A stretch of 28,849 nucleotides of DNA from a virus (lineage: Duplodnaviria > Caudoviricetes). Position 1 is the first letter of the stretch. Each line of letters begins with the position of its first letter. Below the pieces are notes generated by a model. The model ran no database searches. It was not told where the DNA came from and worked only from the letters and a program-made list of their open reading frames with translations. The stretch lies in IMG/VR virus record IMGVR_UViG_3300033388_000633, positions 1-28,849 of that record. The stretch is one strand, 5' to 3'. A program made the position numbers and the translations under genes. This document shows positions 6,576 through 28,265 of this stretch, in pieces.

Positions 6576-7382
6576 TGGCATATATAACCGCATATCAATA
6601 CTATACTAATGGAGGTGTAGCACCCACTAATGCAAATTGGGGGAGCTATCAGTACGTTTCACTTAAAGACATTGTAAACAATTTTATGTTAATGTACCAG
6701 GGTGATGACAAGCTTCTAAATAACGTAAGCAAACATTTAGTTTTATTTCACGCTAAACGAGGGATACAAGAATTAAATTATGATGCTTTAAGAAGTATTA
6801 AGGTTTTAGAATTAAGCGTCTGTCATGATTTGAAGTTTATTCTTCCTCCTGATTATGTTAATTATGTAAGAATATCTTTAGAAGTGGGTGGCATTTTATA
6901 TCCACTGCATGAAAATTCCCAAGTTAATTACGCTACAGCTTATTTACAAGACAACAATTGTGAGGTTCTTTTTGATATTGATGGAGATGTGTTAGAGGCT
7001 GAAGAATCTGAATTAGTCAAAGCTAGGATTAAATACAGCCGAAGCTAATGTTAACCCTTCTTTTAGAATAGATAAAGCTGGAGGAGTTATAAACTTTAGT
7101 TCCGGGGTTAGAGATAAATTAGTAGTCTTAGAATATATTTCAGACGGAATGGAAAATGGAGATAACGCTAGTGTCACTATTAATAAACTAGCTGAAGAAT
7201 TTTTGTATAGCTATATTAGATGGGCTATTTTAGACAATAAAATAGGCGTTCAAGAATATGTAGTGAGAAGGGCTAGGAAAGATAAATGGGCTACTTTAAG
7301 GAACGCAAAAATAAGATTGAGTAATATTCACCCTGGCAGATTATTAATGCCTTTACGAGCACGTGATAATTGGATTAAATGA
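6575..7382 (+). pseudogene. Second tail ring/tubular protein, broken into two frames (6575-7048 and 7017-7382)
   Basis: The N-part ends ...SELVKARIKYSRS*. The +1 frame is open from 7017 and reads GLNTAEANVNPSFRIDKAGGVINFSSG...LEYISDGM straight into the 77-aa ORF. The two parts read as one protein. Confidence 0.7.
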
Positions 7383-13128: not shown

Positions 13129-13554
13129 ATGGTTAAAATATCTCAATACACATCAATATCTACACTGGCTGATGAGGATTTATTTGACACTTCTCAATAT
13201 GATCCCGTAGCCTTAGATTATAATACTAGGTCCATTTCTTATGAAGACATGATAGAGTCTATTAAAACGGATATATATACAAGTACGACCGTAGATGCGG
13301 CAGCGTCTCCAGGTGTAGGAAACAATAGAACTGTATTTTATTCAGCTACAGCTCCAGGGAGTATGAGTTTGCCTCTTCCTATTGCGGGTCGAATGATTAC
13401 ATTTGTAAGAATTGCTAATGGTGGTACAGCAGCCACTATCGCAACGACAGGTCCAGGGGTTTTAATTAATGGGGCTGCTCTTTTTGCGACTGATACTACA
13501 TTGTATTCAATCCAAACCGCCCATTGTGACGGAACTAATTGGTTTATAGCATAA
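13129..13554 (+). CDS. Small tail fibre/spike-like protein
   Basis: 141 aa. N-terminal KISQY...TRSISYED motif and C-terminal LPLP..GR.ITF...DGTNWF beta-domain are typical of phage fibre subunits. Confidence 0.55.
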   Translation: MVKISQYTSISTLADEDLFDTSQYDPVALDYNTRSISYEDMIESIKTDIYTSTTVDAAASPGVGNNRTVFYSATAPGSMSLPLPIAGRMITFVRIANGGTAATIATTGPGVLINGAALFATDTTLYSIQTAHCDGTNWFIA

Positions 13555-14312
13555 TGGGAGATACGATAACATATTCGTCAACTGCTAACGGCACCGGTGG
13601 ATGGACATCCAGGTGGTCTTATGAGCCAGAGTGGATGATAGGAATGAATAGTATTTTTTATTCGTTTAAAAACGGAAACATATACAAGCATTGGAACAAC
13701 CCAAGTAGAAATCCATTCTATGGTGTTAATTACCCATCTACTGTAACGCCCATCTTTAACGACAATCCTATAGAGTCTAAAATGTTTTTAACGTTAGACT
13801 TGGAAGGAACAGACGCTTGGGACGTGGCGGTTACAACAGATTTAAGTGAAGGTTTTATTGATAAAGATTATTTCGTTAAAAAAGAAGGTGTTTATTACTC
13901 TAACATTAGACGATATTTTAACGATGACGACCTAAGTCAAACTTCAGCTCAAGGGATTGGTCAAGCTTCTAATGTTACAGGTGCGGCTCCAGTTGTTATT
14001 GAATTCACTCAACCCATTAGTGGTTTATTGAGTGTAGGCGATATGGCTTATATTGGAGCAGCTGGAGGAATTACTCAAATAGGAGAGGTGTCTAGTTATG
14101 TGAATGGCGTTTTTCCTTTACCCTCTTCAATTACTATTAACTTCCCTGTTAATTTACCTGTAATTGGTGATTTTATTATGTTCTTAAAGAATAGCGAAGT
14201 AGAATCTTACGGATCTCGCGGTTATTATGCTTCTGTCACATTAACCAATAACTTAACAACAGAATCAGAATTATTTGCGGTCAGCGCTGAAGTATTTAAA
14301 AGTTTCCCTTAA
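13554..14312 (+). CDS. Tail protein resembling the C-terminal part of the stabilisation/nozzle protein
   Basis: Likely start is the ATG at 13554, overlapping the upstream TAA (TAATG). Motifs GWTSRWSYEPEWMIGMNSIFYSFKNG, FVKKEGVYY, RGYYASVTL and ELFAVSAEVFKS. Confidence 0.7.
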   Translation: MGDTITYSSTANGTGGWTSRWSYEPEWMIGMNSIFYSFKNGNIYKHWNNPSRNPFYGVNYPSTVTPIFNDNPIESKMFLTLDLEGTDAWDVAVTTDLSEGFIDKDYFVKKEGVYYSNIRRYFNDDDLSQTSAQGIGQASNVTGAAPVVIEFTQPISGLLSVGDMAYIGAAGGITQIGEVSSYVNGVFPLPSSITINFPVNLPVIGDFIMFLKNSEVESYGSRGYYASVTLTNNLTTESELFAVSAEVFKSFP

Positions 14313-14350: not shown

Positions 14351-15145
14351 ATGATAGGAACAGCTATGGCAATTGCTCAAGTGGGGATGTCAGCAGTAAA
14401 ACTGATGAATGAAAAAAATGACCAAAGAGACTTGCGTATAAAATCCGCTAATTTAAAAAAAGAAGCTTACGCTTATTTAGACTCATTAACTAATGAGTTT
14501 GCAGCTTTTCAAGCTAGCGATACTAAAGAGCGATTAGCTATGGACCAACAGGCTCAAAATGTAGCTAATGCTATGGAGGTGGCGTCTTCTACAGCTGAAG
14601 GAGCGGCACAACTTAGTAACTTGGTAAGAGCTCAAGATAGAACCAATCTAGAATTAATGGCTGGATTAGATGAAAAAGAAATGAATGCTCAACAAGTGAG
14701 AATGCAAGGGGCGGAAAATCTGCGAGACACTCAAGCTAAATATAGAATGGACTTCAACAAGCAAGAGCTTATAGGAACTAATGAAGCGTTAGCTGCAAGT
14801 AAAGCGAATCAAGGTCAGTTAGAAGCTCAACTAATAGGTGGTATAGGTGATTTAGGGGGAGCAATAGTAGATGATTTTGTTGACCCCTTTGCTGGAACAG
14901 CTGGAGCTAAGTTAGGAGATGCAAAAGCTAAAGAAGCTAAAATCACCGATAAGATGGATAAGACCAATGAAAGGTATAACAAAAAGGGGGCAGATTGGTC
15001 TGATAAGAAGGTTAAGCGAGTGGGCAATAGACAAGCTAGGAGAAATACACGTCTTTCACAAAACGCAAGAAACATTGAAACTCTACAAGATATAATTAAA
15101 AATCATGGTCTTGGTTATATGGTAGGTAAGGACGAGTTGGAATAA
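14351..15145 (+). CDS. Putative ejection/internal virion protein (small)
   Basis: 264 aa with a hydrophobic G/A N-terminus, an A/Q-rich coiled coil, a GGIGDLGG segment and a basic C-terminus. Its position after the nozzle genes matches podovirus ejection proteins. Confidence 0.55.
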   Translation: MIGTAMAIAQVGMSAVKLMNEKNDQRDLRIKSANLKKEAYAYLDSLTNEFAAFQASDTKERLAMDQQAQNVANAMEVASSTAEGAAQLSNLVRAQDRTNLELMAGLDEKEMNAQQVRMQGAENLRDTQAKYRMDFNKQELIGTNEALAASKANQGQLEAQLIGGIGDLGGAIVDDFVDPFAGTAGAKLGDAKAKEAKITDKMDKTNERYNKKGADWSDKKVKRVGNRQARRNTRLSQNARNIETLQDIIKNHGLGYMVGKDELE

Positions 15146-15155
15146 ATTAATTATT

Positions 15156-17156
15156 ATGGCAAACGGAAGAACAAGCGGAAGTTATTATGGTTACAAAGCT
15201 CCACAGGGAAATGTTCCTGACTATGCAGGGGCTTTTAGGTCTGCGCGTAAAAGTGTAACAGACGCATTAGATAGAAAGAGAGCTGTAAGAGAAAAAGCAG
15301 ATAAAGAATATCAAGACTCCAAAAACGCCTTAAGTGAAGTTCAAAACGGAAAAGACAAAGAATTTAACGACCTTATTGGTGAGGGGTTAAACAACACCAG
15401 GGACGCTCTTTTTGAAAAACAAAAGCTTTTATATGCAGGGAAAATAAAACCATACGATTGGACCGCTTATAATAATAATTTAAAAAATAGTATGACCGCA
15501 CTTAGTGAGGTATCTACTAATTACAATGAAGTATTTGCTAGTTTCTTAGAAAGGCAACAAATAGATCCTGAGACAGGTAGAGCCCCTGCGGGGATTCAAG
15601 AGGATTTCGCAGCTACTGAATTGGGTGAGTTTGCTGATTTTTCTCATAGAAAACTAATGGCAGACCCTAGTGGTAACTTCTTTTTTGCTTATGAGAATGA
15701 TGACGGTAGTATAGATCCAGATAAGTCGGTTAATGTAAATTATGTTAATAGATTACAAAACCACCAAACTAACGCAGTCGATTTACCTAGCGCAGTTGCT
15801 TCTTATACGGAGCAATTTGGAGACTTTAAAAAAGTTATAGATGATGAAAACATTCAAACAACTGAAGGGTTAAATGCTTTAGAAGGTGCTGGTTTCTTAA
15901 ATGAAGCTTTAGAAAATTTATATGGCATGTACATAAATAGCCCAAGTAAATTGATGAGTGTGTTGGGAGATAATAGCGTGTATAGTGTAAGTGGCACAGC
16001 TGGAGATCAAGCTTATTTCACATATAAAACTACAGATTTAGTAGACCCTAAAGACCCTAGTAAGGGGTTTAAGGACGATTCTAAACATAAAGGCAAGCCT
16101 TTAAATCAAGGTATTTTAATGGAGTTAAATCCCGCTGGAGATTGGGAACCTAAATTAAATGAAGATCAAGTCACACAAGCTAAAAAGGTAATAAGGCAAC
16201 AATTTTATTTATCTATGGGGATTAAAGAAACAGCCAAGCCTCAATATAGCAACGACAGTAACAACTTAAGCGTAAGTCAACAAACCGAATTAAAAAAAGC
16301 AAAAAACCTCTACAACAACGCTATGAGTATTGCGACAGGTGAGGTTGCTCAGTTAAACGGTGTTGAGTACAACAATGGACGAATAGAAGGGGCGAGACCG
16401 CATAAAGGTGGTATTCAGTTTTATGTAGTTCAAAAAGATGGAAGTAAACAGCCTGTGGTAATAAAAAGACCACGTAACGCAAAAGGTGAAAATTTAACCG
16501 AAAATGAATTAGCTACTAAATTTGCTAGAAAAGTAATAGCTCCTATTTTACAAAACACTGACCCAACAACAGTAGATACAAGGTTTATGACTGGCTCTAA
16601 AAACTATAGCCAAAAATATAAAACAGATAACTATCTTAGGTATGATACGGACCCATGGGATTTAGAGTCTTATGGTCCATACATTGACTTAGATACAAGG
16701 GTAGGGAAAATTACTCCTCAAGCACCGGGAACTAAAGATAAGCAATCAGCTGGAACTACGATATATAGGATAATCCCTCAAACATCCTGGAAAGGAGCTG
16801 TTAAAACCTTATCTCAAGGTAATCCTAAAAATAAAGACGATCAATCTGGATATGCTTGGAATGACACCAATAAAACTAAAGCGTTTTTAATGGAAGACAT
16901 ACAATCGTTAACCGAAAAAGCTATGGGAGATTTTATGGGTCAAAAACTCGCTAAGTCAGATGTGGTAGTGACTCCACAAGGTAAAGATTCCGCGGTAGTA
17001 AGTATTACAGTTTTCAATGAATCTAATCCACTTCTCCCCCCTAAGAAAGTGCAGTATGTGTTTAAAAAAGGAAATGACGAAACTATTTATAATGAAAACT
17101 TACAAGCTCTTAATAAAGCGGGGAGAGAGGTTTACAGATTACATTACGGAAAATAA
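15156..17156 (+). CDS. Putative ejection/internal virion protein (medium)
   Basis: 666 aa with a helical N-terminus and no Cys. Second of three size-graded genes after the tail block. Confidence 0.5.
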   Translation: MANGRTSGSYYGYKAPQGNVPDYAGAFRSARKSVTDALDRKRAVREKADKEYQDSKNALSEVQNGKDKEFNDLIGEGLNNTRDALFEKQKLLYAGKIKPYDWTAYNNNLKNSMTALSEVSTNYNEVFASFLERQQIDPETGRAPAGIQEDFAATELGEFADFSHRKLMADPSGNFFFAYENDDGSIDPDKSVNVNYVNRLQNHQTNAVDLPSAVASYTEQFGDFKKVIDDENIQTTEGLNALEGAGFLNEALENLYGMYINSPSKLMSVLGDNSVYSVSGTAGDQAYFTYKTTDLVDPKDPSKGFKDDSKHKGKPLNQGILMELNPAGDWEPKLNEDQVTQAKKVIRQQFYLSMGIKETAKPQYSNDSNNLSVSQQTELKKAKNLYNNAMSIATGEVAQLNGVEYNNGRIEGARPHKGGIQFYVVQKDGSKQPVVIKRPRNAKGENLTENELATKFARKVIAPILQNTDPTTVDTRFMTGSKNYSQKYKTDNYLRYDTDPWDLESYGPYIDLDTRVGKITPQAPGTKDKQSAGTTIYRIIPQTSWKGAVKTLSQGNPKNKDDQSGYAWNDTNKTKAFLMEDIQSLTEKAMGDFMGQKLAKSDVVVTPQGKDSAVVSITVFNESNPLLPPKKVQYVFKKGNDETIYNENLQALNKAGREVYRLHYGK

Positions 17157-17167
17157 CAAGAAATACA

Positions 17168-20100
17168 ATGAACGATAAGACATTAGAATCATTATATAAA
17201 AAATTAGGCTTAGAAGCTAATAATGTAAGTTTTGAAGATTTTAAAGGAGCTTTAGAGGAGTACCCAGAATACAGGGATAATATATTTACAGCGCTTGTAG
17301 ACGCAAAAGAATATACTCAAGAAGAAAGGGGCGCATTTGATGACTTGTTAAAAAAAAAAGAAGAAACTTCGGAGTTGGTTGGAAATCAAGCTCCTACCAC
17401 TACTACATTGGCTACCGATCAGTCGGCTCAGGAAGCTGTTTCGGCTTCTTCCGATTTAGAAAGTAGTCAAGAACCTCAAAACCCTCAAGATGTAATTCAA
17501 GATGAGCAAGAGGTAGTTCAAGCTCAAGACGATACGGAATTACAAATTCAACAAGAGAACACTCAAGAAAATACACCTCCACCTGTTATGGCTAACGCTA
17601 CGGTAGACCAGCCTGAGATTACTAGCGCCACACCTATAATAGAAAACCAAACAGACATGACTCCTCCGGCAGAAATGCCAGATGAATTTGCGCCAATTAA
17701 TGCAGATGATTTAATGACTAGTAAAAGCGAAACTGGTCTGTATCCACAAACGCAAGTAGGCTTTGAAGCGGGTAATGAAGAAGATGGAAATTTAGCCAAC
17801 AAAAAAATGGATTATACTTTTTATCAGATTCCTGTTTCTGAAATGGAGCCCGACCAGGCTTCAAGAGTGGTTAATTATATGCAAGAAAATGGGCTAACTG
17901 AATTAGAGGCTAGAATAAAAAATCCTGACATCTTTATAAACCAAAAGCAATTAGACGCTTTAGAACAAGAGAGAGAAGAAACAAATGAATTTTTAGAAGA
18001 AGGGGTTGGGAATATAATAAACACTATAGGTGATGACATATACAACGATGGATTAGAAGTAACAGAAGGAGAAAATATACCATCGGATTGGAGTACAGAA
18101 TTATATACTGCACCTAATGGATCTACCTATGACAATAAATTAGAATTTATTAACTCCCCAGAGGGTAGGCAATTGATTATGGAAGAAAAAACTTCTATAG
18201 CTGGAGGTGATATAATGAATTTTGACATTAATCGTCACATTTTAGAAGATGCTTTTGTTTTCTCAGGAGCCGACCCAGAACCGTTCGGTTATTATAAAAA
18301 CGAAGACGGTGAATGGGGTGGACCCAGAAGGATGTTTGACTATAGAGGTCTTACTCAAGAATCCTCTGGTCCTGGATTACAGAATGTATTTGATTGGGGA
18401 AGTTTTATTAACCCCGAAACCAATAAACCTTACGACTTAACCAAGGTAAAAAGCTATGATGATTTATCCGTCTTGTGGGATAAGATGTCTCTACACATGA
18501 ACGATGATCAAGCTCAACGCATAATGCAAGAGGCTTATAATCAAAGTATAAATAGTGTTAATAATAAAATTTATGACTACGGTCAAAATTATTTAGATAG
18601 AGCCGACCAAGGGGTTTCTAGGTCTTATAAGCAATTAAGAAACGCTCAATACGACTTAAACTTAATAGTAAATAATCTTGCATACTATGAAGGTTTAGAT
18701 GATAAAATGAAATTTGCTTATGACTCTAAATACACAGAAGCAACAGGATTATCGTATGGCGCCTATTTAGCACAACAATGGGATTTCCAGCAGGCTAATG
18801 TAGAAACAGCTTTATTAGAATATGAACAACAACGTTCCTCTTGGTATAGTGATGAAACTGAACTGATAGATTTAAAAACAGGTAAGTTAATCAACTACGC
18901 AGACGCGGATCAAGAAACTTTAGACTATCATCAAAACATAGATGAAAGTGCGTTAAAATTAGTTAGAAGAAAAGGAAATAACCAAGGGTTTTTAGACGAA
19001 CACTTAAGACGTTCATATTATAATCTAATGGCAATTTCATCTACAATGCCTGATAATTTTGCCGAAGCTTGGTGGGAAGGAAATTCTTACTTTGATGTAG
19101 CTCAAGGAGCTTTATTAGAAGGAATGGTAGGGTTATCAGCAGAAGCTAATAAACTGTTTTTTGATGATGAAGAAATGTATAACAACATTAAAGAGATAGG
19201 AAATAGCTTTTCTAAATGGGGAGGGACTGACAAGCAGACCCTTATCAATTCATCTATGTATGATAAAAACGAAGCCCCTGAATTAAGAGATATGAGGATG
19301 AAAAAGCTTTGGTATTTAGATGGTAACTCACCTTGGATAAATACCTTTAATGAGGCTTTATATGATTTTCAATCAGCTAATAGAGCTGTAGTGTTAAATG
19401 AAGATTACATTCAAAAGGCTAAATTAAACCCTGAGAATAAATTTAATATGTACACCAGGGACTTGTTTATGTCCTTTGATTATCCTGACACACCAGGGAC
19501 TCCTGACGATCCAATGAGTTTTGGTAAATACGGACCAAAAGAGGCTGCCAATCATTGGTCTCAAGTTTTACAACAAAATGGAGTGCAAATATCAGATGAA
19601 GACATGGCTTTTATGGAACAAACTTTTGCAGAAAAGGGAATTCATATGAGTGCTCAAATGACTAATTTCCTATATAAATTTGCTTTAACTAGAGGTATGT
19701 TTAAAGGAGTAGTGGGAACCACGGGCGCTACAGCAGCAGCTCCTCAAGGAGTATATAGATGGGACGCTGTTACGGCAGGGTTGGCGGGCTTAGGTCAAAG
19801 TAAAGCGTATCAACAATCAGTGTTTCTTCTTTCATCTATGTTGCAAGAAGGGTTAATAATGGAGGCTTATCAAGAAGGTTTTGAAGGTGGAGAAGGAATG
19901 GGTTTTTTAGAGGGTGCCGCTCTCGCTGGAGGCTCTGGCGCAATGAATATGGCGTGGAAGGCTATTAATAAAATTCCATTTATGGCTAAAATGCCAGCTA
20001 CCATGGAGAAATTTCTCAATAGTCAATCTCAAGTCGTAGGGGGTATGGGAGGTATGTACACTTCTGAACTAGTTCACGAATTAGGTCATAATAAAGAGTG

Positions 20101-23100
20101 GGGAGAAATAGTAAATAATGTGTTTGCTGGTCCTGACAATAGCCCCGGAGAAAAAGCTTTGTTGCTTTATTTTATGACCGCTGGTATTCAGTATTCTAAA
20201 ACTGGGAAAGAAGATATTACACAGTTTAGAGATGCTATAAAAAAAGACATTCAAAACATATATAATCGAAGCTATAAAAGAGTGCCAGCTTCAATAGCGG
20301 CTAATTACAAAAAATTAGGAATACGTCCTGACGCAACTGACCAGGAAGTAGTAGACGCTTATTTAAAGGCTTCCGAAAAATATGAAGATAAAGGCGGTTA
20401 CAGAGATCCTAATAAAATGGAAGAGTTTATGGAGCTTCATGAGGCTTACACCACTGTTAAAAACCATAGAGGACAAAAATCCAACATAGAACAAGGGTTG
20501 GGGGAAATAGCTAAACAAGAACAACAAGATAAATCTAATCAAGAGCGATATGATCATTTAGATGATTTAGCAATTAAAACTACAGATCCTAGAACTGTAA
20601 TGTTGGGGATTCCAACCTCAACTGAAAATTTAACAACCCTACCTTCAGAACAAAGGATATTAGAAGAAATGCAACCCACGTTTAATGCGGAGGAAGCTAA
20701 CTTTTGGGCTAACAAGAGTGAAGTAGAGATTAAAGATTCTTATGGTTATATAAATAATTTAGTAAAACAAGGCGAAGTTACATCACTTCAAGGAGAACAC
20801 ATGAAGCAACAAATTTCTAATGTTCGTGAAATGATGAAAGGATTAGAGGTGATTGAAAACCCTGAAGCCAAGGCAGAGGCTTATGATTTATCTAATGAAT
20901 TAATTCAACAAGAAAGATTATTAAACCTATATCAATCATCAAAAGTGTCTCCATCTCAAAAAATCAAGCAAGTTGAAGCTAGAATAAAAGAGATTAATAG
21001 TCGATTAACCGAAATAGGAAATAACATTGAAGCACCCGCAAGTCCTATAGAAAAAGCGCAAAATGAATTCAACAGGCTTTTAGAAGAAAAAAGAATGATT
21101 GAAAGCCCAAGCTTTAGAAGTAGTAACTCTAAAGAATATGTAGAACAAATGTTGAGAGATATTAACGGTAAGATTAGTGCTCAAGAGGAAAAAATGATTA
21201 ACGAGTTTGGTGGTCAGTTTTCTGGGGGAGGTTCTAATAGAGTTTACGTAGAAGAAGTAGGTCCTTCTAAGTCTAAAACCGAAACGGAAAAGGGAGATAG
21301 AATAAAAGTAGGAGAGCAAGAGGTTATTGAGGAAGTTCCTGAAAACTTAGAAAGAGAAAATCCAGAGCTGTTAGACGCAGAGCAAAAATCATCTCGAGAC
21401 CAAAAGATAGAGGAAATGCAAGCAGAGGGAGAACAGGCTAGGATTACTCAACTCAAAGATTACATAAAAGAATTAAAAGAAAAAGGTGGAGATGAAAAGC
21501 GGGTACAGGAATTAGAAAAAGAATTAAACGATTTAGAGTCGAAACAAGTTGAACCATTAAAAACTGAAAAAGATGCCGATAGTGAGCCAGAACCAATGGA
21601 AGTACCTAGCGAAGAACAAGCCGAAAGTGTTCAAGAGACTGAAGAGATACAACCCGATGACGCGACTCCAGGACCTTCCGAAGTCAGCGCCCAACCGAAA
21701 GCCGACAAGACGACCCCACCGAAACGTTACAAGGACCTAAGAGATTCTGAAAACACCTCTGGAGACCCTCAATTAGAAAGAGTATATGGCGAGATTGAAA
21801 GTGAAATTGCTGAAAAAGTTGAAGCTAGAGATAGAAGAGATAGATACGTGAAAGACAGGTCAGCTATGACTACTAAACAACAAGAAGCTACAGACCGAAG
21901 GGTAAATGCGGAAACTAAAGAGGCTGCTTTAGAATACTTAATGAGGTCTAAATGGTATGAAAACGCCACAGACCTACAAAGAGATGCCGCCTTTAAAGAG
22001 GTGAGTTATCGATTTGGAGCGCCTAAGAAGCGATTAAACGCTCAAGACAGAGCTAACCAAGCTGTAGGGAATAAAGGACGTCAGAAGTTCGTAGATGAGC
22101 TCCAAATGCTTAAAGATCAATTTAAGATAGCTAATAAGGCTGGGAAAGATGTTAGGTATATAGTAGACAATATTCGTAAATATGTAGATCGAAACTTCAC
22201 TTCTAAAAAAGGAGGGGTAAAAATCAACTGGACTACCGGTGACGCTAAGAAGCTTTATAAAAACCTAACAGATGAAAGAGCTGTTCTAGAAAAAGCTTAC
22301 ACAAATAAAAACGGAGACAGGATTAAAAAGTCTATTGCTCGTTTAGAAGAAATAACGAAAGAGATAGACCAGCTTATAGAAAACAAAACTCGCCCTACTT
22401 ATGTAGCGTGGTTAAAAGAAAATACGGTAGTAGATAATTTAACTACTGAGTCTGGTAGTGCTCAAATCTCGGTGAATAAAATTAAAGAACTAAGACAGTA
22501 TGTGGATAATTTAAAAAAACCATTTGAGGAAATGACCACTACCGAACTAGAGCAAACTATTAGTGATGTTCAACAAATTATAAAAGAAGGTAAAGACGCT
22601 AAAACATTAGAGAGAAGTCGTAAGCAAAAATCTCAAATGGAAAATAAGGGTAAAATAGCAAAAGAGTTATATGTTGAAGGGGAAGATTTTAGCCAAGATG
22701 TAAACACCTACGAGGAGGCTGAGGCATATTTAGGATCTCAGAAAACTGACCTTAAACAACCCTTAAAAACTTTAGAATTAGACCAAGAAAAAACTTTTAA
22801 AAACGAACAAGGAGAAGAGGTGTCGTTAGAAAAAGGAATTAGCGACAAGCGATCAAAATTAAGAAAATTAAGAGAAGAGGCAGAAAATATTGAAGAGGAA
22901 GTAATTGCTGATGAGGTGGTTGCTGATGAGGTGGTTGCGGAAGAACCTGTCTCAGATGAGGTAATAGAATTAGAACCAATAGACCCAACAGAAGCTGACT
23001 TTTCATCTTATGATGTTAAAAACGCTGAAGAGAATCCAGCATTGGAGCCCTATATTAATTCAGAGGTGGAATCATCTAGAGATATGTTAGGGGGTCCAAA

Positions 23101-23290
23101 AGCTATTCAAGAAACGGCAGAATTAGGAAAAAAATTAGATGCAGACAATGCTAATGTGGTGTTTAAGAGAGATTTAGGGATTGTAGGTGGTCGAAGAATA
23201 TTTGAATTTGAAGTAGAAGGTACAGGAGAAAAATTCTTAATGTACAAATCTAAAGGAGAGGGAACTGGTCCTGAATCAAAAGGAAAATAG
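17168..23290 (+). CDS. Giant putative ejection/cargo protein, N-terminal part (to in-frame TAG)
   Basis: 2040-aa ORF with an acidic low-complexity N-region, G/A-rich hydrophobic helices (~19650-20190), a J-like domain and long coiled coils. Same frame as the next ORF. Confidence 0.7.
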   Translation: MNDKTLESLYKKLGLEANNVSFEDFKGALEEYPEYRDNIFTALVDAKEYTQEERGAFDDLLKKKEETSELVGNQAPTTTTLATDQSAQEAVSASSDLESSQEPQNPQDVIQDEQEVVQAQDDTELQIQQENTQENTPPPVMANATVDQPEITSATPIIENQTDMTPPAEMPDEFAPINADDLMTSKSETGLYPQTQVGFEAGNEEDGNLANKKMDYTFYQIPVSEMEPDQASRVVNYMQENGLTELEARIKNPDIFINQKQLDALEQEREETNEFLEEGVGNIINTIGDDIYNDGLEVTEGENIPSDWSTELYTAPNGSTYDNKLEFINSPEGRQLIMEEKTSIAGGDIMNFDINRHILEDAFVFSGADPEPFGYYKNEDGEWGGPRRMFDYRGLTQESSGPGLQNVFDWGSFINPETNKPYDLTKVKSYDDLSVLWDKMSLHMNDDQAQRIMQEAYNQSINSVNNKIYDYGQNYLDRADQGVSRSYKQLRNAQYDLNLIVNNLAYYEGLDDKMKFAYDSKYTEATGLSYGAYLAQQWDFQQANVETALLEYEQQRSSWYSDETELIDLKTGKLINYADADQETLDYHQNIDESALKLVRRKGNNQGFLDEHLRRSYYNLMAISSTMPDNFAEAWWEGNSYFDVAQGALLEGMVGLSAEANKLFFDDEEMYNNIKEIGNSFSKWGGTDKQTLINSSMYDKNEAPELRDMRMKKLWYLDGNSPWINTFNEALYDFQSANRAVVLNEDYIQKAKLNPENKFNMYTRDLFMSFDYPDTPGTPDDPMSFGKYGPKEAANHWSQVLQQNGVQISDEDMAFMEQTFAEKGIHMSAQMTNFLYKFALTRGMFKGVVGTTGATAAAPQGVYRWDAVTAGLAGLGQSKAYQQSVFLLSSMLQEGLIMEAYQEGFEGGEGMGFLEGAALAGGSGAMNMAWKAINKIPFMAKMPATMEKFLNSQSQVVGGMGGMYTSELVHELGHNKEWGEIVNNVFAGPDNSPGEKALLLYFMTAGIQYSKTGKEDITQFRDAIKKDIQNIYNRSYKRVPASIAANYKKLGIRPDATDQEVVDAYLKASEKYEDKGGYRDPNKMEEFMELHEAYTTVKNHRGQKSNIEQGLGEIAKQEQQDKSNQERYDHLDDLAIKTTDPRTVMLGIPTSTENLTTLPSEQRILEEMQPTFNAEEANFWANKSEVEIKDSYGYINNLVKQGEVTSLQGEHMKQQISNVREMMKGLEVIENPEAKAEAYDLSNELIQQERLLNLYQSSKVSPSQKIKQVEARIKEINSRLTEIGNNIEAPASPIEKAQNEFNRLLEEKRMIESPSFRSSNSKEYVEQMLRDINGKISAQEEKMINEFGGQFSGGGSNRVYVEEVGPSKSKTETEKGDRIKVGEQEVIEEVPENLERENPELLDAEQKSSRDQKIEEMQAEGEQARITQLKDYIKELKEKGGDEKRVQELEKELNDLESKQVEPLKTEKDADSEPEPMEVPSEEQAESVQETEEIQPDDATPGPSEVSAQPKADKTTPPKRYKDLRDSENTSGDPQLERVYGEIESEIAEKVEARDRRDRYVKDRSAMTTKQQEATDRRVNAETKEAALEYLMRSKWYENATDLQRDAAFKEVSYRFGAPKKRLNAQDRANQAVGNKGRQKFVDELQMLKDQFKIANKAGKDVRYIVDNIRKYVDRNFTSKKGGVKINWTTGDAKKLYKNLTDERAVLEKAYTNKNGDRIKKSIARLEEITKEIDQLIENKTRPTYVAWLKENTVVDNLTTESGSAQISVNKIKELRQYVDNLKKPFEEMTTTELEQTISDVQQIIKEGKDAKTLERSRKQKSQMENKGKIAKELYVEGEDFSQDVNTYEEAEAYLGSQKTDLKQPLKTLELDQEKTFKNEQGEEVSLEKGISDKRSKLRKLREEAENIEEEVIADEVVADEVVAEEPVSDEVIELEPIDPTEADFSSYDVKNAEENPALEPYINSEVESSRDMLGGPKAIQETAELGKKLDADNANVVFKRDLGIVGGRRIFEFEVEGTGEKFLMYKSKGEGTGPESKGK
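17350..17466 (+). other. A10 slippery tract with -1 frame extension (KKKRRNFGVGWKSSSYHYYIGYRSVGSGSCFGFFRFRK*)
   Basis: Ten consecutive A at 17350-17359. The -1 frame is open for 38 codons to TAG at 17464-17466. Confidence 0.5.
20303..20464 (+). other. DnaJ J-domain-like segment lacking HPD
   Basis: NYKKLGIRPDATDQEVVDAYLKASEKYEDKGG...EEFMELHEAYTTV aligns by eye to the J-domain consensus YxxLGVxxxAsxxEIKKAYRKLAxKYHPDK...EKFKEINEAYEVL. Confidence 0.7.
21573..21740 (+). CDS. Nested +1-frame small basic protein, 55 aa (MPIVSQNQWKYLAKNKPKVFKRLKRYNPMTRLQDLPKSAPNRKPTRRPHRNVTRT)
   Basis: ATG...TAA ORF inside the giant gene with an A-rich leader (TTAAAAACTGAAAAAG) and a locally raised GC content. Resembles small phage proteins starting MPFKSxxQxxYL. 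Not in the ORF track. Confidence 0.65.
   Translation: MPIVSQNQWKYLAKNKPKVFKRLKRYNPMTRLQDLPKSAPNRKPTRRPHRNVTRT
22905..22938 (+). repeat. 15-bp tandem repeat TTGCTGATGAGGTGG x2.3 (ADEVV repeats)
   Basis: Two exact copies (22905-22919, 22920-22934) plus TTGC, in an acidic linker. Confidence 0.9.
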
Positions 23291-26200
23291 GTTCCATTAA
23301 AATACTTCGCTAAAGACGGTTGGTTTGTTAAAGGAAGAGTAGATAACGAGGGTAACTTAAGTATGGAGCCACTTACTAACGAAAACAATCCGAAGTTTAA
23401 TAAATACGGAAGTGAGACCTTTAAAGAGTTAGCCAAAAAACTAGAAGCTGACGCAGAAGCTGTAAAAAATGAAAACACTACCGAAACTAAAGAAGAGGTT
23501 GCAACAGAAGAAGTGGCGGAAACTAAGAGAACTAAAGAAGATGTACAAAAAGAAATCGAAGCTACTGAAAATGAAATTGAACAATTAGAAGAGGTTTTAA
23601 ATGAACTACCTACTCAAGCAGAATTAGACGCTGCTAGAGACAGGTTGATTAATGAAGCTAGAGATTCAGACGCTATAGATAAAATTGAAAATGCATACGA
23701 AAAAGCTTCTAAACGTTTAAGACAGGAAGAGGCAAGTTCAAGTGTAACTTTTGATCCTAGGGACGGTTTTGTATTGGTTACAACGAAAGACGGAAAGACG
23801 TATCTCGTTAAAAGTAAATCAGACTTAAATAAAATTGACCCAGAGGAATTTGAGTCAGGAACTGGATATGTCAGTAAAGATGTTCAAATTAGTAGACAAC
23901 AACAACAAGCTATTCAAGGTGAAGAATTAAAGGATAAACTAAAAAGCGAAGCGGAAAAAGCTGTTAAAAAGATAGCAAAACCTTTCCATGGAGCCTCTAT
24001 TAAAACTATCAAAACTCTATTAGAAAGAGTGGGTCTAGGTAAGCCAGAACTAAAAGAAGCTACTGTTGATATTTATGAAGACATTGTAGCGGCTAGAAGA
24101 AATATTCAAAAACTTGCTGATGAGTTAACCACATCGCTAAATGAAGTGAAAAAAGAAAACAAAATCACTGATAAGTTTTTATTGAAAGCTAAATCAAAAG
24201 ATGGTAAATCAAGCACAAGAAATATTATAAAACACGAAACTCCAGAATCTTCTTATGAGATTACCAATGACACAGCCGTAGATTTATATATGCTTAAAAT
24301 AGCGGAAGGTAAATACAGGTTAGAGCAAACAGGTGTAGATGTAGCTGAATTGGACTCCTATATGGACGCCAATCCAGAGCTAAAAAAATACGCAGAAGAC
24401 ATGTTAGACTGGTATGAGTCTACAAGACCTTATTTTAAAGATGTGTTTGAAGATGTAACAGGTAGAACTTTTGAGGACTTCAATAGAAACCCTGACGGAG
24501 AAGAGTTGCGTTATATGCCTATTTGGGCAAAAGGCACAAGTGAGAGACCAGGGTCAGATCTTATAACAAGTGATAATTTTACTTTAGGTATAAAAGGCGG
24601 TAAAGATCAAAACTATTCTAGCAGTGTAATGACTGATCGTTTTAAACAAGTAATGAGTAAAGACGGTAGATGGGAGCGCCCTGAAGGTCCATATCAAATG
24701 ACAGGAGCTAACACAAAGGCATTAGATTACATTAAAGAGATGACTCATACTAATGAGATGTGGGATGTCAACCAAAAAATTAAAGGGCTAATTAACCCAC
24801 AAACAGAAGGGAAATTAATTGACATGATGGGAGAAGAGAACTATAGATCTCTTAAGTCTCAATTAGACGAAATAACGGGCGGAGAAAATAAATACCAAAC
24901 TCAAGTTGAGTCTGTTATAAATAAAGTTAATAAAGCTGGTGTGGTATATAGACTAGCATTTAACACCTTGAATATAGCCAAACAAGCAACTACCGCCACT
25001 CATTGGCTTGGAGCTGGAATAAAAGACGGGGTATACCCTTGGGATATGGTGGCGCAGTCCGGATTAAGCGTTACTGACCTGGTTGGTAAAAACGGGAAAG
25101 AAAAGGTAAATTTCATTTGGGATATAATAACAGATCCTCAAATAAAAAATAGATGGAAAAAAACCGCTATAGACCCTGCCTTTGAAGAGTTTATTAATAA
25201 AGCGTCTACCACTAAAGAATGGAGCGTTACCCAAAAGAGAAGAATGTTAGGTAAACTTTTAACTGACATAGGAATGAAGCCTACGCAAGTTGGGGATATG
25301 CTTGGAGTTTTAGGCGGAGGAATTCCTTACGCGTTAGCTTATAGGACGAAGTACATAAAAGACGGATACTCTAAAGCTCAAGCTTCAGAAATGGCTCTAG
25401 GTAAAATGACTAAGCTAATGAACGAGTTACAGCAATCTCAAGAAGGTTACGCTACTACACCACTACAAAGAAGTTTATTAGGTAGAACGTTTGTGACTCA
25501 ATATAAGAGTTCTCAAATTCAAGCTGTAAACAAACAAATGCAAGTAATTCAAGAAATAAGAGATTCTAAAAACGCTACCACTAATGAGAAGGCTCAAATG
25601 GCATACGATTTTATTTATTGGAGCATGTTTAACGCTGGCTTTAGTGCTTTCGCAACAGGATACGCAGCGGATGTATTAGGTCTTAGTGATTCTGACGATA
25701 AAGGTGAAGAACGAACACAACACAACTTTATAGAAGGTATGATGAGTTCACAACTTCAAGGTATGGGTATGTTAGGGTTAGTAGCTGAATTTGGAATGAA
25801 TGAATTTATTGGACAAGACTGGAAAAACAACAACCCAATGATTGACTTTATAAGTGATATTACTGGAGCTGTCTATGAGGCAAGCACAACAGGTATTGGG
25901 GATATGACTGAAAAGGTGGAGAAAGGAGATTTACTAAAAAGTGTAATTGACTTAGAAATAAAAAATAAAATAATTGAAGCCGCTGAAAATGATGGATGGA
26001 GTACGGCTATTGATATGTATGACGATTATATGTTTTCTACACATGGAGATAAATTAGAAGGAGAAGGAGAAGTAAGTAAATTGTGGGCAGAAAAATTTGA
26101 AAAAGAACGAAACGCTTTAATTAAATTTAGTGAAAAAGAAAGCTTTATAAAAGCTATAACCCCCAATGGTTTAGCTAAGATTTTTGATGCAATTTCAGGG

Positions 26201-26389
26201 GATGCAGAATTGTTAGACCTTGTTATTAAGCGAGTTCAAGGATATGATGAAATAAAAGAAAAAGAGAAAAGAAGAGTAGATAAATTATTTGAACTAACTA
26301 AAGGTAAAAAATACATTGAAGACGAACCAAAGAAACAGACTGAGAAAGCGAACGTGTTGAAGTATGAAGACGAAAACTCGGCTTATTGA
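23291..26389 (+). CDS. Giant putative ejection/cargo protein, C-terminal part (in frame with 17168-23290)
   Basis: Bases 23291-23362 are open in the same frame (VPLKYFAKDGWFVKGRVDNEGNLS) and lead into the 1008-aa ORF. LAFNTLNIAKQ and G/A-rich helices resemble the C-terminal helical region of large phage internal proteins. Confidence 0.7.
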   Translation, partial: VPLKYFAKDGWFVKGRVDNEGNLSMEPLTNENNPKFNKYGSETFKELAKKLEADAEAVKNENTTETKEEVATEEVAETKRTKEDVQKEIEATENEIEQLEEVLNELPTQAELDAARDRLINEARDSDAIDKIENAYEKASKRLRQEEASSSVTFDPRDGFVLVTTKDGKTYLVKSKSDLNKIDPEEFESGTGYVSKDVQISRQQQQAIQGEELKDKLKSEAEKAVKKIAKPFHGASIKTIKTLLERVGLGKPELKEATVDIYEDIVAARRNIQKLADELTTSLNEVKKENKITDKFLLKAKSKDGKSSTRNIIKHETPESSYEITNDTAVDLYMLKIAEGKYRLEQTGVDVAELDSYMDANPELKKYAEDMLDWYESTRPYFKDVFEDVTGRTFEDFNRNPDGEELRYMPIWAKGTSERPGSDLITSDNFTLGIKGGKDQNYSSSVMTDRFKQVMSKDGRWERPEGPYQMTGANTKALDYIKEMTHTNEMWDVNQKIKGLINPQTEGKLIDMMGEENYRSLKSQLDEITGGENKYQTQVESVINKVNKAGVVYRLAFNTLNIAKQATTATHWLGAGIKDGVYPWDMVAQSGLSVTDLVGKNGKEKVNFIWDIITDPQIKNRWKKTAIDPAFEEFINKASTTKEWSVTQKRRMLGKLLTDIGMKPTQVGDMLGVLGGGIPYALAYRTKYIKDGYSKAQASEMALGKMTKLMNELQQSQEGYATTPLQRSLLGRTFVTQYKSSQIQAVNKQMQVIQEIRDSKNATTNEKAQMAYDFIYWSMFNAGFSAFATGYAADVLGLSDSDDKGEERTQHNFIEGMMSSQLQGMGMLGLVAEFGMNEFIGQDWKNNNPMIDFISDITGAVYEASTTGIGDMTEKVEKGDLLKSVIDLEIKNKIIEAAENDGWSTAIDMYDDYMFSTHGDKLEGEGEVSKLWAEKFEKERNALIKFSEKESFIKAITPNGLAKIFDAISGDAELLDLVIKRVQGYDEIKEKEKRRVDKLFELTKGKKYIEDEPKKQTEKANVLKYEDENSAY

Positions 26390-26860: not shown

Positions 26861-27168
26861 CTTAGTTGATTTTTCCGTAGTTTTACTTTCCTGTTTTCTA
26901 AAATTAAATCTAAATATCGATCACACGATATTGTCTCCATGAAATCTACTAAATATTCGTTTCCAGGTCGCAGTTCAAAATAAAATTCTATAAACACTGG
27001 TTCGTTAGTATCTTCCAAATGAAAGACATGTCCTAGAGACATAGGTTCAGTAAGTATGTTATCCATTCGCTCTATCATTTGGATAATGTCTTCCCATTTT
27101 ATATCTTCATAGGTTTGGAGTTGATCGATAAAATCTATTGATAATGTTATTTTAGGTATTTTTACCAT
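26848..27168 (-). CDS. Hypothetical protein (106 aa)
   Basis: ATG-started ORF overlapping both neighbours, with no recognised motif. Confidence 0.65.
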   Translation of the reverse strand: MVKIPKITLSIDFIDQLQTYEDIKWEDIIQMIERMDNILTEPMSLGHVFHLEDTNEPVFIEFYFELRPGNEYLVDFMETISCDRYLDLILENRKVKLRKNQLRWVH

Positions 27169-27400
27169 TGTATATTTCTGTTTTACATCCGTGTTTTTGG
27201 AGTTCTTTCAGCCTGTATTTTTGAAGCTTAGAAAGTCTTCCGGTTGGTTTTTTAATTTCTGAAAACAATACACCTGAATCTGGCGGTATCGCTATAAGGT
27301 CAGGTATACCGTGTTTGTTTGTGGTGATTAATTTAATGACATAATAGCCCTCAGCTTCTAGTTGCTTTATTCTCTTAGCTTGTATGTCTTGTTCTTTCAT
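27152..27400 (-). CDS. VRR-NUC domain (PD-(D/E)XK) nuclease
   Basis: MKEQDIQ...GIPDLIAI...FSEIKKPTGRLSKLQKYR is the VRR-NUC signature. The likely start is the ATG at 27400, just after the upstream stop. Confidence 0.85.
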   Translation of the reverse strand: MKEQDIQAKRIKQLEAEGYYVIKLITTNKHGIPDLIAIPPDSGVLFSEIKKPTGRLSKLQKYRLKELQKHGCKTEIYNGKNT

Positions 27401-27401
27401 T

Positions 27402-28265
27402 TTATAATCCACAATAACCGCTATCACATTCTGTGAAGTCATCATCAAATAAAGACACTTGCTTTAAAGAGTCTTTAATCTGTTGATAAGACATGTCGGT
27501 TTTAAATAATCGTTTGCCTTTTCCGTATCCTACATCTTGTTCTTGTTTTACGAACCAATTGAATTTATTAGGATGTCTTTCGCTCATGTGTTTTAAAAGT
27601 ACAGCATTTCTGTGAAAACACCCAACGCAATTGTTCATGTACGCAAATGTTACTGGTTTTCCTTTCCAGTATTTTTCTATATCATCTTTATATAATCCGT
27701 CCGTAATTAAAGGGAAGTTAGGTTTTTGATACTTCATTCTTTCCCACCTGTTAGGTCTAATGGTCCCCTTAGACTTACCCACGATAAACTTGTCGTATAT
27801 AAACCCATCATCTTCACATCTTTCTAGCATAGATTTAGCCCTATTCATTTCATTAGCTCTAAATCCTATTCTAACCTCTATAGGAGTTCGTATGTTTGCA
27901 TACCAAAATACTTTAATAGGCTCTACTTTCATTAAGGAAGTGCAAAACCGTTGAACTTTGTTAGGTAGGTACTTATTTTTGCCTCGGGTAATAAGCTTAT
28001 CAAAAGACAGTCCAGCCACCCAATTTATTTCCTGTCCTATATATTGTTCAAGTTCTAGTATGGTTTGAATGATTACATCTTCTTCCAGGGTGCCAATAAA
28101 TTCTTTTCCGATTTTATCTGATACCATTTGCCTAATCTTAGGATCAGGATATAAACAATCCTTATCATCCGTAGTTACTAGTGCGAATACGTTATAGTCA
28201 GCTGGATAATTGGCTGCTATATAAGCTGAGGTTTTACCTCCCGATATACTATTAAGCGTTATCAT
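27402..28265 (-). CDS. PAPS-reductase-like (PP-loop adenine nucleotide alpha hydrolase) protein
   Basis: N-terminal SISGGKTS PP-loop, then RFCTSLMK, IGFRANE, NNCVGCF and terminal ECDSGYCGL Cys motifs. Confidence 0.82.
   Translation of the reverse strand: MITLNSISGGKTSAYIAANYPADYNVFALVTTDDKDCLYPDPKIRQMVSDKIGKEFIGTLEEDVIIQTILELEQYIGQEINWVAGLSFDKLITRGKNKYLPNKVQRFCTSLMKVEPIKVFWYANIRTPIEVRIGFRANEMNRAKSMLERCEDDGFIYDKFIVGKSKGTIRPNRWERMKYQKPNFPLITDGLYKDDIEKYWKGKPVTFAYMNNCVGCFHRNAVLLKHMSERHPNKFNWFVKQEQDVGYGKGKRLFKTDMSYQQIKDSLKQVSLFDDDFTECDSGYCGL

Follow-up and report, generated by a model that had tools for sequence, protein, structure and literature searches.

A run of ten adenines lies 61 codons into the giant third cargo-type gene of a marine, crAss-related podophage, and most distant relatives of this phage keep the homopolymer together with an overlapping -1 reading frame that is under selection. 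The best overall explanation, to which a probability of roughly two in three is assigned, is polymerase slippage yielding a predicted short second protein. Here, RNA polymerase would slip on the A10 run and most transcripts would encode the giant cargo protein. One extra A would lead to a 99-residue protein composed of the giant's N-terminal module and a conserved cationic three-stranded tail, and one A lost or two gained would lead to a third, probably functionless product of 96 residues. The polymerase that slips would probably be that of the host. There is high confidence that the site is a genuine recoding site kept across the family and that the ORF overlapping there is under selection.

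Virion module and phage affiliation

The window, i.e., the whole stretch of 28,849 nucleotides analyzed here, carries the virion module of a crAss-related podophage, in which portal, capsid, ring and muzzle genes were recognized by PHROG and Pfam matches. Next come three genes, whose products comprise 264 and 666 amino acids and, in near-identical genomes, 3,078 amino acids. Over the 28.8 kb compared, the portal, capsid, ring and muzzle proteins as well as the order of the three cargo genes are shared with Pachyviridae/Pervagoviridae-like flavobacterial podophages. All named tblastn matches of the muzzle C-terminal-domain gene (muzzle-C) are phages of Flavobacterium, Cellulophaga, Tenacibaculum, or Maribacter (28–39% among the matches listed), and its named relatives include Pachyviridae, Pervagoviridae, and Elemovirus. 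The phage itself appears to be a Pachyviridae/Pervagoviridae-like flavobacterial podophage. The features relevant for this study are:

13554–14312, plus strand: muzzle C-terminal-domain gene (PF25729 crAss_MUZ_C, E 1.5e-13), the independent marker for gathering relatives
14351–15145, plus strand: first cargo-type gene, 264 amino acids (synteny; putative function)
15156–17156, plus strand: second cargo-type gene (cargo 2), 666 amino acids, whose stop is the anchor of the comparison (synteny; putative function)
17168–26389, plus strand: giant third cargo/ejection-type gene, 3,078 amino acids in near-identical genomes
17168–17349, plus strand: N-terminal module, 61 codons, common to the giant and the predicted short products (from sequence)
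17350–17359, plus strand: A10 homopolymer, the putative slip site (sequence; run kept in relatives)
17359–17466, plus strand: overlapping ORF in the -1 frame, 35 codons plus TAG, encoding a cationic aromatic/Gly tail, predicted to be a three-stranded beta-meander (sequence, comparison and model)
17352–17459, plus strand: +1 frame with stop TAG at 17457–17459, which would be entered after one A lost or two gained; probably a by-product

Judged by their position, the three genes following the muzzle would encode cargo or ejection proteins, since they are syntenic with those of crAss001 (accessible part of PMC10172136) and an MS/MS note exists on the syntenic genes of phi18:3. In the phi18:3 record, the syntenic giant is noted as a virion structural protein by MS/MS, and the giant protein is probably carried in the virion. 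Searches of the three cargo genes against Pfam and PHROG profiles gave no sequence match to crAss001-type cargo or to the T7/P22 ejection families. In the giant protein P0001, neither a DxDGD-type RNA polymerase motif nor a family match was found that would place it among the packaged multisubunit RNA polymerases of Crassvirales.

At several positions the window deviates from related sequences. A TAG at 23288–23290 cuts the giant into ORFs of 2,040 and 1,008 amino acids, where L007, L008, P0001, P0003, P0004, and P0006 have TGG/Trp, and five residues of P0001 are missing from its C-terminal part; probably, these are assembly defects or signs of a defective genome. Furthermore, ~113 nt (about 7026–7030) and ~124 nt (7615) of L007/L008 are absent, so that a ring-protein gene and the muzzle gene are frameshifted. 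Residues 1047–1100 of the giant (about 20306–20467) show a weak match to a DnaJ domain (E 2.7e-5, below the Pfam cut-off), in which the HPD motif is absent. On the minus strand, a phosphoadenosine phosphosulfate reductase-like gene (phrog_424, 27402–28265) and a VRR-NUC nuclease (27152–27448) are located.

The A10 site and its frames in the window

From position 17348 the giant gene reads TTA AAA AAA AAA GAA, with A10 at 17350–17359, and the -1 peptide terminates at the TAG at 17464–17466. This matches exactly what had been described in an earlier reading of the letters (the sequence-only reading). With one extra A, the product computed from the sequence comprises 64 + 35 = 99 amino acids, and the +1 frame, reached by one A lost or two added, would give 96. 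The same reading had pointed out three TCG codons in the giant's frame as rare elsewhere; they are found at 17369, 17423, and 17441, and TCG accounts for 26 of the 559 Ser codons in the 14 large plus-strand ORFs of the window.

In these ORFs A10 is the sole run of at least eight As, where synonymous recoding predicts 3.0. Runs of at least ten As are expected 1.08 times by chance in the window, with a probability of 0.77 for at least one. A -1 frame that stays open for at least 36 codons at this place has P = 0.018 under synonymous recoding and is seen after 0.6% of codon positions. AAG is used in 17 of the 42 Lys-Lys pairs and in four of the five Lys-Lys-Lys triplets of the window's ORFs. By itself, the window is a weak case for recoding; it is the comparative data, as laid out below, that make the run and the hidden frame non-random.

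The same A10 is present in two near-identical IMG/VR contigs. Contigs from five of eight sequencing runs bridge it with zero indels (two runs had no coverage, and one fewer than 31 letters on one side), although contigs can conceal rare run-length variants. The run is therefore not an assembly slip. Two population variants fall into the overlap: the one at 17374 is silent in the giant and changes Val to Ile in the -1 frame, and the one at 17439 changes Val to Ala in the giant and is silent in the -1 frame.

Conservation of the run in related phages

The giant or its N-terminus as query matched only near-identical copies and one 69-amino-acid fragment. Since these queries were uninformative, relatives were gathered via muzzle-C, an unrelated upstream gene whose use as a marker avoids selecting loci on the feature itself. 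From at least 479 confirmed viral stretches and at least 551 metagenome stretches, the best 80 each were taken, which together with further records gave 173 sequences with the marker. Eight of these were excluded as near-copies of the window, and another 53 due to an incomplete cargo-2 ORF or less than 800 nt beyond cargo 2. The remaining 112 sequences formed 93 clusters at 85% nucleotide identity, here called loci, with a median marker protein identity of 44%.

Within 600 nt after the cargo-2 stop, a run of at least nine As is present in 86 of the 93 loci (A10 in 77, A11 in five, A9 in four), compared to 0/93, 0/93, 0/90, and 0/85 in four equal control windows. Two further loci (L043 and L064) have T9 in place of the A-run, followed by the same kind of tail, and encode Phe where the A-run encodes Lys, which brings the total to 88/93 loci with A or T runs of at least nine. 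These T9 loci sit on separate branches of a quick tree, one of them as sister to an A10 locus (SH-aLRT 100). Other A or T runs of at least nine are scarce in these loci, with only 23 in 1.41 Mb. The window's phase of the run is shared by 67 loci, the others being spread over at least five phases, and among the in-frame majority of loci no preference for A_AAA_AAG was seen.

The sequence-only reading had proposed programmed recoding at A10, had expected homologs to show a conserved poly-A stretch encoding Lys-Lys-Lys followed by a similar -1 peptide, and had named AAG codons within the run and early stops in the -1 frame as signs against it. Run and tail were indeed recovered in the relatives, AAG interrupts none of the 86 A-runs, and no -1 frame among the 88 loci is nine codons or shorter. 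In contrast, the Lys-Lys-Lys part of the expectation did not hold: since two lineages use T9, the conserved signal is the homopolymer and not the tripeptide. By inspection, neither run nor tail is present in L038, L041, L157, L136, and L137, which correspond to two changes on the quick tree. With five of 93 loci lacking the system and one A10 locus (L057) having a -1 frame of only 10 codons, the system is not indispensable.

Selection on the overlapping frame

The -1 frame is open for at least 23 codons in 83 of the 88 loci, compared to 11.4 expected; here, the cut-off of 23 codons was picked after the data had been seen, and the frame of the giant was set by hand for two loci. Its length ranges from 10 to 51 codons with a median of 35. 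Four of the five short frames are recognizable two-strand versions of the tail, and L057 is not.

Conservation is concentrated in this frame as well. The mean pairwise BLOSUM excess over shuffled sequences is 20.3 for the -1 peptide, compared to 5.6 for the giant frame, 6.7 for the +1 frame and 6.4 for the N-terminal modules. The low conservation of the giant frame in the overlap is expected, as a low-complexity linker is encoded there. Differences at positions 1/2/3 of the -1 frame amount to 113/104/167 (22 disjoint close pairs, 814 codons). The third positions of the -1 frame are the second positions of the giant, and the peak of differences falls there. For the same pairs, two control regions, one within cargo 2 and one deeper inside the giant, peak at the third codon position (356/253/643 and 283/221/508). 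The codon usage of the giant carries the same imprint, since its frame has to read TCG and TTG where the -1 frame encodes Phe-Gly and Ile-Gly: within the overlap, TCG accounts for 25% of Ser codons (147 of 577) compared to 3% downstream (73 of 2185), and TTG for 46% of Leu codons (67 of 145) compared to 11% (274 of 2542). This explains the rare TCG codons singled out in the sequence-only reading.

Upstream of the run, the -1 frame closes a median of three codons before it and has no ATG, GTG, or TTG in 83 of the 88 loci, and within the first six -1 codons past the run a start codon was found in 0/88. The run is thus the entry to the tail. Independent initiation of the tail was ruled out for those 83 loci, which lack an upstream start codon.

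The +1 frame is also unusually open, with at least 23 codons in 75 of the 88 loci compared to 31.7 expected, and openness alone therefore overstates the case for the -1 frame. A functional +1 product was considered and found unsupported, as this frame is cut to nine or fewer codons in seven loci and its peptide is conserved near the shuffled level. The +1 frame is probably a by-product.

Composition and predicted fold of the tail

The tails have a mean net charge of +6.2. In the sequence-only reading, a tail free of acidic residues and rich in R/K/F/Y/G had been emphasized. As a description this holds for the window, but not as a diagnostic sign: 15 of 30 open 36-residue -1 windows, which represent the generic shadow of this frame, lack Asp and Glu, compared to only 29 of 87 homologous tails. 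The acid-poor, R/F/Y-rich composition of the -1 peptide is largely a generic -1 shadow, and an acid-free composition was rejected as proof of coding, since half of the open -1 windows lack these residues too.

An AlphaFold2 prediction on 71 aligned tails gave three antiparallel strands (7–12, 16–25, and 28–37; pLDDT 83.8, pTM 0.49), although a 38-residue model is weak evidence for a real fold. The beta strands that had been proposed before are thus recovered in the model, with three strands instead of a hairpin. Each strand contains one near-invariant Gly (66/71, 71/71, and 57/58) with aromatic and aliphatic neighbors, and Arg/Lys are found at the turns and ends of the strands, so that the conserved positions are hydrophobic and Gly rather than basic. 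By eye, the number of strands in relatives is apparently two to four, and the tail alignment is too variable to define a pattern on DNA level. No significant match of the tail was obtained in Pfam (two single-member matches, E 0.06–0.08), PHROGs, PDB sequences (best E 6.7), the ESM Atlas, or Foldseek-PDB (0 at E ≤ 0.001).

The N-terminal module

In relatives, the modules upstream of the run comprise 24–95 amino acids, are highly diverse and poorly conserved. Internal repeats occur in the modules of 71 of 86 relatives; the module of the window is not significantly repeated (p 0.63). A distant look-alike of 69 amino acids (P0002, E 5e-5) ends with VKKK, and the ESM Atlas yielded leads only, at 0.84. 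The same module type recurs in distant loci (L009–L174). The modules of phi18:3 and phi13:2 are unrelated, yet past the run both continue into the same tail, and modules therefore appear to be exchanged at the run. A second break of the giant frame, away from any A or T run of nine, is found in L128 (~370 nt past the cargo-2 stop) and L019 (~750 nt), possibly due to assembly errors.

Cultured isolates

Nine records of cultured phages were inspected. In phi38:1, Calle_1, Gundel_1, and elemoF, A10 is present and the giant is in frame. In the other five (phi18:3, phi19:3, phi13:2, phi46:3, and Panino), the run is A9 and the start codon is out of the giant's frame. Due to this, the GenBank annotation of the four Cellulophaga phages phi18:3, phi19:3, phi13:2, and phi46:3 lists a short gene followed by a giant that lacks its N-terminal part. 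The five A9 records include four from a single collection, and the A9-out-of-frame state was seen in none of the uncultured loci. Among the 88 loci, the giant is in frame in 86 at any run length, the two exceptions being GenBank isolates, and at none of the loci does the start codon read directly into the -1 tail. The A9 in the isolates could be either real or a homopolymer miscall; if it is real, a gained A would give the giant and a lost A the beta tail.

Probable polymerase slippage and competing explanations

Bacterial RNA polymerase slips efficiently on nine As or Ts, and the hybrid within the T. thermophilus enzyme spans 9–10 bp, as described in the accessible part of PMC5009743. In the loci studied here, the run is at least nine letters long and kept as DNA regardless of residue and phase, and the shifted frame is selected, which are the sequence hallmarks of programmed transcriptional slippage. 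The sequence-only reading had left the choice between RNA polymerase slippage and a ribosomal shift on A_AAA_AAA. Slippage is favored over the ribosome by the length of 9–11 in any phase, the switches from A to T, the lack of a preference for A_AAA_AAG and the lack of a conserved stimulator, and the heptamer fits less well. Given that recoding takes place, the shift probably occurs in transcription, and probably by the host enzyme; the host RNA polymerase is presumed since the giant lacks the DxDGD motif. Alternatively, a -1 shift of the ribosome on A_AAA_AAA or U_UUU_UUU could produce the same short protein from unedited mRNA. A valid X_XXY_YYZ heptamer lies inside every run, as any A10 contains A_AAA_AAA, and dsDNA phages use -1 shifts in tail-chaperone and capsid genes (accessible parts of PMC5009743 and PMC9965538). 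In addition, the four A9-deposited Cellulophaga Pachyviridae read A_AAA_AAG from the N-terminal frame into the giant frame, and the window has a long hairpin, not general among relatives, that spans the 3′ half of the overlap (~17407–17470; z -2.3 when 17360–17480 is folded). However, seven bases would be enough for a ribosome, yet the run is fixed at 9–11 in any phase, and A_AAA_AAG, which shifts E. coli ribosomes far better than A_AAA_AAA or U_UUU_UUU (PMC5009743, accessible part), is unused by the in-frame majority. A conserved RNA stimulator was rejected, with folds in window and family near the control: at stimulator distance the window shows no structure (z 0.26), hairpin folding across the family gave a mean z of -0.3 to -0.6 compared to -0.1 for the control, with 6/88 loci below -2 as in the control, and an SD-like site upstream is present in only 9/88 loci and not conserved. 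Some phage ribosomal shifts proceed without stimulators. Overall, ribosomal frameshifting is regarded as an unlikely source of the short protein.

Two further explanations dispense with programmed recoding. If the length of the run changed during DNA replication, genomes would switch between giant, short protein and neither; the five of nine cultured records that have A9 and an out-of-frame giant as well as the occurrence of lengths from 9 to 11 would fit such phase variation. The nearly universal in-frame state described above, the lack of any locus with the tail in frame with the start, and the zero indels in bridging contigs of five sequencing runs, though contigs hide rare variants, speak against it. 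A virion giant detected by MS/MS in the A9-deposited phi18:3 would also be hard to switch off, and phase variation is judged very improbable. Less credible still is that no second protein exists and that a Lys-Lys-Lys motif in an AT-rich gene meets the shadow of a Ser/Thr-rich linker. The expectation of a chance A10 in the window and a composition typical of a -1 shadow are consistent with it, but AAG never breaks the run in 86 loci, and the T9 loci with Phe for Lys and the same tail, together with substitution positions and codon bias that track the -1 frame, largely refute it.

Proposed function of the short protein

Concerning its role, the short protein is predicted to enter the virion alongside the giant by means of the N-terminal module common to both, and the Gly/aromatic strands and basic flanks of the tail would enter or grip the host membrane during ejection. 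This reading as membrane-engaging virion cargo is based on the N-terminus shared with the giant and on the hydrophobic conserved face, and is put forward tentatively. It is the weakest step of the overall explanation, its membrane role being drawn from composition and pattern. Provided that recoding is real, it is about an even bet that the slippage product instead binds packaged DNA, acts as a ratio-set assembly chaperone of the kind that gpG/gpGT provide for lambda tails, or helps to breach the outer membrane at lysis, which would differ from the best explanation in function only. The tail charge of +6.2 would suit such a role, as would a possible likeness to cationic beta-hairpin antimicrobial peptides, and fixed-ratio products with a common N-terminus are a known use in lambda gpG/gpGT (PMC5009743, accessible part), whereas the hydrophobic and Gly nature of the conserved positions, rather than a basic one, speaks against it.

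Comparison with known systems

By analogy, the site would work like the slippage site of Thermus thermophilus dnaX, and its transframe tail would be like P3N-PIPO. In dnaX, which gives tau and gamma, the long product is likewise one ORF, and extra bases in a bare run of at least nine lead to shorter products with the same N-terminus (accessible part of PMC5009743). In contrast, the shifted dnaX frames stop at once, whereas here the site lies in a phage cargo gene, close to its 5′ end, and is followed by a selected tail of 10–51 residues (median 35). For potyvirus P3N-PIPO and filovirus GP editing, an added A also opens an overlapping ORF within a longer gene, and a minor +1-frame product is possible there as well (same source, accessible part). 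These are RNA viruses with their own polymerase, unlike the dsDNA podophage studied here, where the polymerase is presumably that of the host. The lambda gpG/gpGT and T7/T3 capsid 10A/10B pairs, as far as the accessible sources describe them, resemble the present case in that a single phage gene yields a pair of assembly or virion products that have the N-terminus in common. However, theirs are ribosomal, lie near the 3′ end and make the shifted product longer, whereas here the shift would occur at codon 64 of about 3,000 in the cargo gene of a short-tailed phage and the shifted product would be short. The crAss001 cargo (gp45, gp46, and the RNAP-associated gp47/49/50) and the T7/P22 ejection proteins are likewise encoded after ring and muzzle genes and are large; they are expected to be carried inside the virion and to build the membrane channel (accessible part of PMC10172136, in which no recoding is mentioned). 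Unlike for these, no family sequence match was found here and no RNAP motif in the giant.

In a literature search that covered few subscription journals, no description of the site was found. The word "frameshift" is absent from the main text of PMC8776804, and single mentions in the accessible parts of PMC7886860 and PMC10386132 concern other genes.

Implications

In a broader and speculative picture, which is considered rather unlikely to hold in full, a stutter of the host RNA polymerase at codon ~60 would set the ratio of a small virion protein in widespread aquatic Bacteroidota podophages. Its two to four hidden beta-strands would form an ejection pore, and some cultured A9 members would make the giant only via a slip.

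The site may explain the short gene and truncated giant annotated in phi18:3, phi19:3, phi13:2, and phi46:3. With phi38:1, a cultured phage with an in-frame A10 is at hand, for which infection RNA-seq has been published (PMC5335546, accessible part) as well as raw proteomes of virocells (PXD066074/MSV000098485; PMC13288928). The tail would represent an unannotated family of proteins, concealed within a core virion gene of flavobacterial phages that are abundant worldwide. The site also suggests that polymerase slippage can be productive in a dsDNA phage, where it would give access to a selected tail that overlaps an ejection gene.
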